The position numbers and the translations under genes are program-made. A DNA stretch of 36,943 nucleotides, taken from the NCBI GenBank assembly GCA_964385185.1, contig CAYLOA010000011.1, positions 1 through 36,943 of the forward strand, read 5' to 3'. Below, in pieces: positions 11,512-36,478 of this stretch (positions are counted from its first letter, which is position 1; every line of letters starts with the position of its first letter). Origin of the DNA: an uncultured Methanosarcinales archaeon (GTDB lineage Archaea; Nanobdellota; Nanobdellia; Woesearchaeales; CALCXY01). The notes beneath the pieces are model-generated. The model ran no database searches. It worked only from the letters and a program-made list of their open reading frames with translations, and was not told the origin of the DNA.

Positions 11512-11584
11512 GGGCTTTTGGTGAAATCTGGTATCACGTACCCTTGGCTTGGGTGAGTTCCGGATTCAAATTCCGGAGAGTCCA
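11512..11584 (+). tRNA. tRNA-Ala(GGC)
   Basis: Full cloverleaf; G3:U70 pair; anticodon GGC at 11546-11548; A73; TTTAAATA box about 25 nt upstream. Confidence 0.9.
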
Positions 11585-15397: not shown

Positions 15398-15554
15398 GGC
15401 GGTGTAGCTCAGCCTGGTTAGAGCGCTACGCTCATATGTTTTGAGCGATGATCCGAAAGGAGATGATTAAGCAAATCTAACGGGGTTACGTAGAGTAATT
15501 GGGGTTTCCCATTACACGTTAAAGTCAAGGGTTCAAATCCCTTCACCGCCACCA
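15398..15554 (+). tRNA. tRNA-Met(CAT), elongator type (Ile2 not excluded), with two introns: 15437-15487 at 37/38 and 15494-15521 at 43/44
   Basis: Spliced product GGCGGTG TA GCTC AGCCTGGTTA GAGC G CTACG CTCATAA CGTAG AAGTC AAGGG TTCAAAT CCCTT CACCGCC ACCA; BHB-like junctions; encoded CCA. Confidence 0.9.
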
Positions 15555-18005: not shown

Positions 18006-18223
18006 AAACACTCTTTGGTTACCTAAAAGGTCTACCTTTATTATTAGCAATCGCATTATTATTTTTAGTAGTAGGCATTTTCCTAATATTTTTTAATATT
18101 CTCTTCGCAGCTGCTGTAGGAATTATCTTAATTCTAGTAATATTCATCGTACCTTATTACATGGGAAGAGCACATCAACCTGAAGAACCTGGAAGTTATA
18201 AATTAAAAGATATTAAAGAATAA
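18002..18223 (+). CDS. Small two-TM membrane protein
   Basis: ATGA overlap with the upstream gene; long hydrophobic stretch. Confidence 0.7.
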   Translation: MKTLFGYLKGLPLLLAIALLFLVVGIFLIFFNILFAAAVGIILILVIFIVPYYMGRAHQPEEPGSYKLKDIKE

Positions 18224-18226
18224 AAG

Positions 18227-18386
18227 CGCCAGGGACGGGAATTTCGCCCGTGATTCAAATCAGGGATTCGAACCCGCACGGCCTGGTTAAGACCACAGAT
18301 TTTCAATCTGTTGCACTTCCAAGTTATATTGAATAGCGACGCTATTCAATGCTTGTGGAACTTGTTCCACATTATGCTACCCTGGC
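18227..18386 (-). tRNA. tRNA with a Ser-type body (long variable arm, G73) and GAA anticodon; BHB intron at 59/60 (18241-18266) and a 48-nt D-loop insertion (18324-18371); possibly a pseudogene
   Basis: Spliced: GCCAGGG TA GCAT AACTTGGAA GTGC A ACAGA TTGAAAA TCTGT GGTCTTAACCAGGCCGT GCGGG TTCGAAT CCCGT CCCTGGC G. Confidence 0.8.
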
Positions 18387-18431
18387 ACTTGGTGGAAAAG
18401 TTTATAAACTGGTTCCACCAATCCAGTTATA

Positions 18432-18464
18432 CCTGGTTAAGACCACAGATTTTCAATCTGTTGC
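18432..18464 (-). repeat. Exact 33-nt duplicate of the tRNA anticodon arm plus most of the variable arm (18282-18314), next to an 11-bp hairpin at 18466-18490
   Basis: cctggttaagaccacagattttcaatctgttgc occurs at both sites. Confidence 0.9.
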
Positions 18465-36311: not shown

Positions 36312-36478
36312 TGGACCCGTCGGGACTTTCGATTCCTGTCTCAGGTCTAACATCCCTGACAGAATGATTCGAACCCGAGGCCCCCGCCTTTCTGAGGACA
36401 ATTGTCCTTGCAAGGGCGGTGCTCTAATGCCTTAATGTGCACATTAATGCAACAAAATCCAGGCTGAGCTACAGGCCC
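36312..36478 (-). tRNA. tRNA-Ala(TGC) in the 16S-23S spacer with three introns: 36427-36458 (D-loop), 36390-36408 (37/38), 36326-36367 (59/60)
   Basis: Spliced: GGGCCTG TA GCTC AGCCTGGTA GAGC A CCGCC CTTGCAA GGCGG GGGCC TCGGG TTCGAAT CCCGA CGGGTCC A; G3:U70. Confidence 0.92.

Follow-up and report, generated by a model that had tools for sequence, protein, structure and literature searches.

Gene anatomy

The window, a stretch of 36,943 nucleotides, is archaeal according to the 23S and 16S rRNA genes that it carries. On its minus strand, positions 18227..18386 hold a tRNA gene of serine type with a phenylalanine anticodon, in agreement with the original prediction. The gene is made up of the following parts, all on the minus strand.

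18227..18386: complete pre-tRNA gene of 160 nt, reaching from position 1 to the discriminator G73, acceptor stem 7/7 bp
18372..18386: exon 1, with the acceptor 5′ strand, U8 A9, the D-stem 5′ strand GCAU and A14 A15 (direct reading and alignment with the orthologous contig L018)
18323..18371: D-loop insertion, 48-49 nt, which contains one perfect hairpin of 8 bp and another of 11 bp
18267..18322: exon 2, with the remaining D loop (UUGGAA), D-stem 3′ strand, anticodon arm, variable arm, T-stem 5′ strand and the T loop up to position 59
18302..18304: anticodon GAA, within the loop UUGAAAA (18300-18306)
18278..18294: 17-nt variable region, 5-bp stem GGUCU/AGGCC, kept in L018 with a G.U replacing a G-C pair
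18241..18266: 26-nt T-loop intron (59/60), the top-scoring candidate of the BHB scan, with a strict hBHBh′ motif
18227..18240: exon 3, with U60, the T-stem 3′ strand CCCGU, the acceptor 3′ strand and G73
18212..18226: T-rich trailer CUUUUAUUCUUUAAU, a putative terminator-like element
18401..18408: TTTATAAA box, 15-22 nt 5′ of position 1, in the loop of a hairpin (18389-18397/18413-18421)

Direct reading gave the acceptor GCCAGGG/CCCTGGC followed by a discriminator G, the loop TTGAAAA with its GAA anticodon, closed by ACAGA/TCTGT, and the 17-nt variable region GGTCTTAACCAGGCCGT with a 5-bp stem GGTCT/AGGCC, all as previously described. The D-stem 3′ strand is GUGC, followed by A26, and the T-stem 5′ strand GCGGG is followed by UUCGAA. 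CCA is absent from the encoded 3′ end. Once the T-loop intron and the D-loop insertion are taken out, the mature tRNA has 85 nt and forms a complete cloverleaf with the canonical 7/5 layout. It carries G18 G19, U33, a 7-nt anticodon loop and the T loop UUCGAAU.

We infer that the TTTATAAA box is the proximal promoter of the gene. It is identical in L018, and similar boxes are found 5′ of the three paralogs described below.

ARAGORN did not call the gene, and did not accept it either with the D insertion left in. Rfam missed it at the gathering score; at a loose E-value, a weak tRNA-Sec-like partial match of 18.8 bits was obtained over the gene. A nested tRNA with acceptor ATTCAAT/ATTTGAAT, considered because of this match, was rejected since, by reading, only 3 T-stem pairs form. 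The variable arm was also considered as an intron and rejected, being too short and devoid of a BHB motif. Because ARAGORN and Rfam miss such genes, the tRNA inventories of such genomes are incomplete.

The GAA anticodon in independent assemblies and at the orthologous locus

The recurrence of the same loop in a 33-nt duplicate had been taken to mean that GAA is not an isolated base call. The duplicate is indeed exact, positions 18282-18314 being equal to 18432-18464. The read-level check that had been suggested was run on assembled Logan contigs. The anticodon is the same in all four runs, X2, X4, X5 and X8. The X2 contigs span the whole stretch at a depth of 44.5, and X2 may be the source sample. 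The X8 contig covers 18199-18349, and X4 and X5, possibly one data set filed twice, cover 18100-18309. The sole difference across the run contigs is 18311 T>C, that is A27>G, with the base pair kept as G.U. The stretch was found in 20 DNA runs, which stem from 17 studies and are metagenomes of marine, seawater or hydrothermal-vent origin; the 24 runs retrieved included none of RNA.

Two metagenome contigs carry the locus. L019 is nearly identical and also shows the A27>G change. L018 is a diverged ortholog, its flanking coding DNA being about 70-75% identical to that of the window (by eye). Its anticodon is GAA, and it has G73 and a T-loop intron of different sequence. The D-loop insertion is precisely absent from it.

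Paralogs and ordinary tRNAs of the host genome

The genome to which the window belongs (G000) has 1.30 Mb in 85 contigs, with 35% G+C, and is marked 100% complete. It contains four genes of this kind including that of the window, all of class II, with GAA in three and GAU in one. The other three are the following.

C5:4937-5048: paralog with anticodon GAA, class II, G73, T-loop intron
C37:6149-6257: paralog with anticodon GAA, class II, G73, T-loop intron
C18:10911-11028: paralog with anticodon GAU, class II, G73, T-loop intron

After removal of the T-loop intron, ARAGORN called these genes Phe(gaa), Phe(gaa) and Ile(gat), respectively, with 85-86 nt. Between these three genes, the stems differ by compensatory changes.

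Beside this family, the genome has a canonical set including Phe(GAA), Ile(GAU), Ser GGA/UGA/GCU and Leu(GAG). Thus, the separate tRNA-Phe and tRNA-Ser(GGA) whose presence was to be checked are both there. G37 is a trait of tRNA-Phe. The canonical tRNA-Phe of G000 has G37, a 5-nt variable loop and A73, as anticipated, and A73 is found in the canonical tRNA-Ile as well. Compared with tRNA-Phe, the window gene shares the anticodon GAA but neither A73 nor the short loop, having G73, a 17-nt arm and A37. Overall sequence identity of the family genes is 56-71% with the tRNA-Ser of the genome and 52-64% with its other tRNAs. This measure is weakly discriminating, and the C37 gene has no identity preference for tRNA-Ser over other tRNAs.

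The neighbours of the family genes are housekeeping genes (LonB, Kae1, MetAP, FKBP, a DEAD helicase, glycoside hydrolases). No integrase, toxin-antitoxin pair or transposase was found among the 30 ORFs scanned near them. One full-length SerRS of 421 aa is encoded in the genome, on contig C7 (TIGR00414, 433.8 bits). Because the GluRS motif RFEPSP has its Phe encoded with UUU, global reassignment of UUY is unlikely, as had been stated from the same motif.

A family across the archaeal order

A pattern combining a Ser-like D arm, class II spacing, a T loop and the anticodon GAW was run against 150 further genomes of the order. It matched in 14 genomes, and the reversed-pattern control gave 12 single hits. 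The 14 genomes were filtered by requiring a 5-bp anticodon stem and by reading each hit. Real members were retained in nine of them (G001, G008, G044, G052, G059, G076, G078, G084 and G087), and the hits in G139, G079, G102, G027 and G070 were dropped as chance. G001, which is of the same genus as G000, carries an ortholog of the C37 gene. A second sample added members in three further genomes, G159, G232 and G206. The 28 genomes sampled from the other orders of this class contained no member; the single hit among them (G407) is, by eye, a class I tRNA-Ile with an intron. All the related genomes with the family are metagenome-assembled genomes.

A table was made of 18 further genes having both ends fixed, from 10 genomes and one contig, 11 with GAA and 7 with GAU. 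G73, an acceptor stem of 7/7 and the 7/5 layout are found in all 18. The variable arm ranges from 13 to 20 nt. Only 2 of the 306 stem pairs are non-pairs, while 14 of the 17 stem positions show 2-6 pair types. Most members have A37 in place of G37.

The family exists beside ordinary tRNAs. In G044, which is marked 100% complete, tRNA-Phe and tRNA-Ile of class I are present together with tRNAs of four Ser and five Leu anticodons, and three extra class II genes, two GAA and one GAU, come in addition. The order-wide pattern had fixed the anticodon to GAW. When the anticodon was left free, in five genomes, no anticodon other than GAA, GAU and, once, GAG was found in the extra class II genes. GAG belongs to a Ser-like class II gene of G052 (C78:16-66) with a family-type variable arm. 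It is a Leu (CUY) anticodon, and the gene, at a contig end, is read without its discriminator.

Two arrangements may be mentioned. In G044, the class I tRNA-Phe is followed on its own strand, after about 200 nt, by a class II GAA gene (C13:21160-21496). In G206, GAA genes occur in two tandem pairs (C1:161442-162097 and C10:28523-28840).

Other searches gave chance matches. BLAST of the window locus against 40 relatives returned nothing real, the match in G001 lying in coding DNA, and with the C5 gene as query, G001 yielded a chance match only. The exact 15-mer of the anticodon arm had 5 matches in 400 genomes of the order, all by chance and in non-tRNA DNA. For the class I tRNAs, BLAST with tRNA-Phe against 5 relatives was too insensitive, and a class I pattern missed the tRNA-Ile of G000 itself.

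These data bear on the alternative reading that the window gene is a decayed tRNA-Ser(GGA), one G>A change away. A single change does lead from GGA to GAA, and the window copy has A37 like tRNA-Ser(GGA). However, the same bases are read in independent assemblies, in L019, in the diverged L018 and in the 33-nt copy. GAA also recurs in the three-paralog set and in many related genomes, with compensatory changes in the stems. Finally, the genome has a separate, intact tRNA-Ser(GGA) with a different body, of which the window gene body is no recent copy. GAA as a sequencing or assembly error, or as a recent decay of tRNA-Ser(GGA), is therefore refuted and keeps a negligible probability. Because similar genes with Phe and Ile anticodons recur in related archaea, the window gene can probably be regarded as an oddity of the decoding apparatus that has been maintained, rather than as a gene in decay. 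That the mismatch is conserved in many families of one order, always as GAA or GAU and together with G73 and the T-loop intron, argues for selection.

The T-loop intron and the D-loop insertion

The T-loop intron of the window gene has a helix H of 4/4 bp (UUCG/CGAA), bulges AAU and AUU, a helix h of 5 bp and a helix h′ of 3 bp. A 4-bp helix between two opposite 3-nt bulges is what defines an archaeal BHB intron. An intron is present at the same position in 18/18 tabulated family genes, with lengths from 15 to 73 nt, and in the 14 correctly registered ones 3-4 of the 4 bp of helix H are formed. It is absent from all three canonical tRNA-Ser of G000 and from 4/5 tRNA-Ser read in relatives. In 18 of the 150 relatives of the order, ordinary tRNAs have such introns as well. 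We consequently rejected the T-loop intron as a family-specific trait.

The D-loop insertion is different. Because an ATAA repeat stands at both of its ends, its junction is ambiguous. The bulge-helix-bulge scan found no strict BHB there. The best relaxed form has h of 5 bp, H of 3/4, bulges of 3 and 4 nt and h′ of 4 bp. With only this form, the window copy may mature poorly. The family could be functional while the window copy is disabled by the insertion and is becoming a pseudogene. The insertion is missing in the ortholog L018, its flanking 4-nt ATAA repeat resembles a target duplication, and two other GAA genes of the genome could cover for a lost one. On the other hand, all stems of the window gene are intact, and the only population variant, A27>G, preserves the base pair. 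In addition, the block comprising the upstream hairpin, the self-copy and the TATA hairpin is about 95% identical between L018 and the window (by eye). Moreover, the relaxed BHB scores equal to an intron in the tRNA-Asp of the same genome, and ordinary tRNAs of this genome also have D-loop introns. We regard loss of function of the window copy as very improbable, though not negligibly so.

The genome has one match to PF01974 (splicing endonuclease), a 241-aa open frame on contig C9. This endonuclease would excise the T-loop intron at the BHB and probably the D-loop insertion too, and CCA would then be added to the spliced tRNA.

Heavily interrupted tRNAs were met elsewhere in the genome. C21:9476-9623, considered as a fifth family member, was rejected as an ordinary tRNA-Asp(GUC) with three introns. 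At this place (C21:9380-9623, minus strand; L025) the tRNA-Asp has introns in the D loop, at 37/38 and in the T loop at 59/60. The next gene, directly after it, is a tRNA-Lys(UUU) whose D loop contains an intron, and ARAGORN either overlooks or miscalls each of the two. In the window, a tRNA-Met with a 79-nt intron is found at 15398-15554. A tRNA candidate with acceptor GGGCCTG and A73 lies in the 16S-23S spacer (36312-36478, minus strand) and folds only with a 42-nt T-loop intron.

Upstream self-copy and shared elements

The region 5′ of the window gene contains three further elements, all on the minus strand.

18432..18464: same-strand copy of tRNA positions 24 to about 47, covering the anticodon arm and a portion of the variable arm, conserved in L018
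18466..18490: perfect 11-bp hairpin directly upstream of the copy, with a stem identical in L018 and a different loop
18499..18554: distal element, 47/56 identical to C5:5153-5208, upstream of the C5 paralog

The 56-nt distal element could be a distal promoter or a regulator site. It is also recognisable 5′ of the C37 gene and in L018 (TTGTAAGRAC.TWATTAAG).

Exact self-copies of at least 10 nt of the anticodon or variable arm, within 260 nt upstream, were found for 13 of the 18 family genes. As a control, 30 ordinary tRNAs of G000 were used, and only three tRNA-Ser reached a 10-nt upstream self-copy. Downstream self-copies of at least 10 nt were found for 5/30 ordinary tRNAs (Met, Ala, Ser GGA, Ser UGA and Val), so partial tRNA copies are not confined to the family. 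An integrated element was considered as the source of the 33-nt repeat and rejected: the copies are 150 nt apart, there is no integrase nearby, and the copy is conserved in L018.

The tRNA-Ala(GGC) of the window (11512-11584) and a tRNA-Met (C7:14495-14572) have exact self-copies of 15 and 18 nt, respectively, at most 260 nt downstream. The canonical tRNA-Ser(GGA) (C22:8594-8900, minus strand) has three tandem repeats of about 59 nt in front of it. Every repeat begins with a copy of the first ~14 nt of this tRNA and contains, in addition, a stretch complementary to that copy.

Serine identity and possible function

The variable arm and G73 are the main serine determinants, and the anticodon plays no part (PMC9976931). 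The same source describes G30:C40 as a weaker serine-identity element in archaea and G73 as an antideterminant for archaeal LeuRS (PMC9976931). The serine features originally recognised in the window gene, beside its Phe anticodon, are confirmed and extended. The long variable arm and G73 are accompanied by G30:C40 and G1:C72, and the anticodon, which defines the isoacceptor, is GAA in place of NGA or GCU. G30:C40 is shared by 13 of the 18 family genes.

Our main reading is that the window gene is a maintained class II serine-type tRNA gene with a GAA anticodon, member of an order-wide family, whose product would be serylated and would pair with UUY codons. Judging from the sequences, we give it a probability of about one half. 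The gene would be transcribed from its own TATA box. After splicing and CCA addition, the single SerRS would charge the tRNA with serine, because this enzyme recognises its substrate by the long variable arm and G73, independently of the anticodon. On the ribosome, the serylated tRNA would then pair with UUU and UUC, and its GAU relatives with AUU and AUC. Since the window tRNA would compete with the ordinary tRNA-Phe, serine entry would be only low or conditional. Several points stand against this reading. Strict conservation of GAA and GAU is not predicted by SerRS charging alone; such a restriction would fit recognition by PheRS and IleRS, or else a need to read those codons. Besides, serine in place of Phe or Ile should be harmful, and the family genes of G000 are only slightly closer in overall identity to its tRNA-Ser than to its other tRNAs.

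The first of these points leads to the possibility that the family consists of spare tRNAs for Phe and Ile. PheRS and IleRS would read GAA and GAU and charge these tRNAs correctly, the variable arm being baggage of a tRNA-Ser ancestor. Such tRNAs could simply provide additional capacity to read codons that are very common in an AT-rich genome. The near restriction of the extra class II genes to GAA and GAU (with one GAG) when the anticodon was free in five genomes is in favor of this, as are the class II GAA gene lying 3′ of the class I tRNA-Phe in G044 and a member of G078 with the Phe-like loop CUGAAGA. Nevertheless, G73 is found in 18/18 members as compared to A73 in the canonical Phe and Ile tRNAs of G000, and most members have A37 instead of G37. 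Furthermore, in G008 and in G044, the GAA and GAU members of the same genome have a common acceptor stem and D arm, which points to one charging enzyme. Correct charging with Phe and Ile is thus distinctly unlikely in our opinion.

The product might also be a tRNA-like RNA that stays off the ribosome. It may be serylated, and could act as a donor in a non-ribosomal reaction or as a regulator or decoy, or else be held inactive by its intron. This would be in keeping with the intron being constant in the family and rare in the tRNA-Ser examined, and with the frequent upstream self-copies. There is a precedent in the nev-tRNAs, which are reported to mature with no detectable misincorporation (PMC4300185). 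However, ordinary tRNAs of the order have T-loop introns too, and the elements for ribosomal use are intact, namely the 7-nt loop with U33, G18 G19 and a canonical T loop after splicing. In addition, no partner enzyme was found. A ProRS-like core (C64) was tried as a dedicated partner and rejected, as it occurred in only 1/151 genomes of the order with the C64 query and showed no co-occurrence with the family. We consider a role outside the ribosome unlikely. The C64 gene (C64:616-1368; L030) encodes a 250-aa protein with the ProRS-like class II catalytic core only and adjoins a radical SAM gene of the HemW/ChuW kind.

Serylation and UUY decoding, as in the main reading, could be part of a broader scheme, which is tentative and, to us, rather doubtful. 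The order, made of small-genome marine archaea, would keep dedicated serine-charged tRNAs for UUY and AUY. Their supply would be gated by the obligatory T-loop intron and the unusual upstream self-copy, resulting in a switchable, statistical Phe>Ser and Ile>Ser decoding. Such a switch could serve, for instance, when the costly Phe and Ile run short.

Comparison with known systems

Among known systems, the nev-tRNAs of nematodes resemble the family in several respects. They are class II tRNAs with a 7/5 fold and anticodons of class I amino acids, Ile included; they are conserved in a clade and coexist with a full normal set. They are leucine type and confined to nematodes (PMC4033280), and their main anticodons are CCC and UAU. 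In contrast, the present family is archaeal, has G73 and is therefore of serine type, carries GAA or GAU and always has a T-loop BHB intron. The window gene has the class II fold with a class I anticodon that characterises nev-tRNAs, but its host is an archaeon, and its G73 should disfavour archaeal LeuRS.

The original prediction had compared the gene to an allo-tRNA mistranslator. This comparison is useful for the proposed function and fails for the fold. Bacterial allo-tRNAs also combine a serine-type identity with mostly non-serine anticodons, and they insert Ser in E. coli (PMC5389517). They have an 8/4 or 9/3 layout, read 35 codons and are often near toxin-antitoxin genes (PMC5389517). 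Unlike them, the window gene and 18/18 relatives have the 7/5 layout, two anticodons are used and the neighbours are housekeeping genes. Because of the 7/5 fold, the likeness is limited to function.

The tRNA-Ser(CAG) of CUG-clade yeasts places a serine tRNA on a hydrophobic codon and, in Ascoidea asiatica, competes with a cognate tRNA (PMC6041473). This example comes from eukaryotes and affects one rare codon only, whereas here two very common codon pairs would be concerned and the decoding is only proposed. As for the gene structure, archaeal tRNAs with non-canonical introns share with the family a BHB outside 37/38, several interruptions and a tendency to be missed by standard finders. The cases described are ordinary tRNAs, whereas here a mismatch between identity and anticodon comes in addition (PMC4033280, PMC4090602, PMC3239211).

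The best reading of these comparisons would be that the family is an archaeal counterpart of the nev-tRNAs and the allo-tRNAs and a member of neither. The table of class II tRNAs with mismatched body and anticodon in the 2014 review has none for Archaea (PMC4033280). No archaeal report of such tRNAs was found in the literature searched, with supplements and subscription journals outside its scope.

Should the tRNAs be serylated and used on the ribosome, decoding would be ambiguous at two codons that rank among the commonest in an AT-rich genome, and this ambiguity would be natural and maintained. Should they be charged with Phe and Ile instead, they would to our knowledge be without precedent as class II tRNAs for these two amino acids. 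If neither holds, they would constitute a new tRNA-like RNA.

A scan of viral contigs gave no match, and a scan of genome contigs gave only two, both bacterial. Two bacterial class II tRNAs of 88-89 nt, one in a Hymenobacter MAG (L005:571-658) and one in JAABUL010014448.1 (L020), are called Phe(gaa) by ARAGORN and have the same 15-nt anticodon arm as the window gene.
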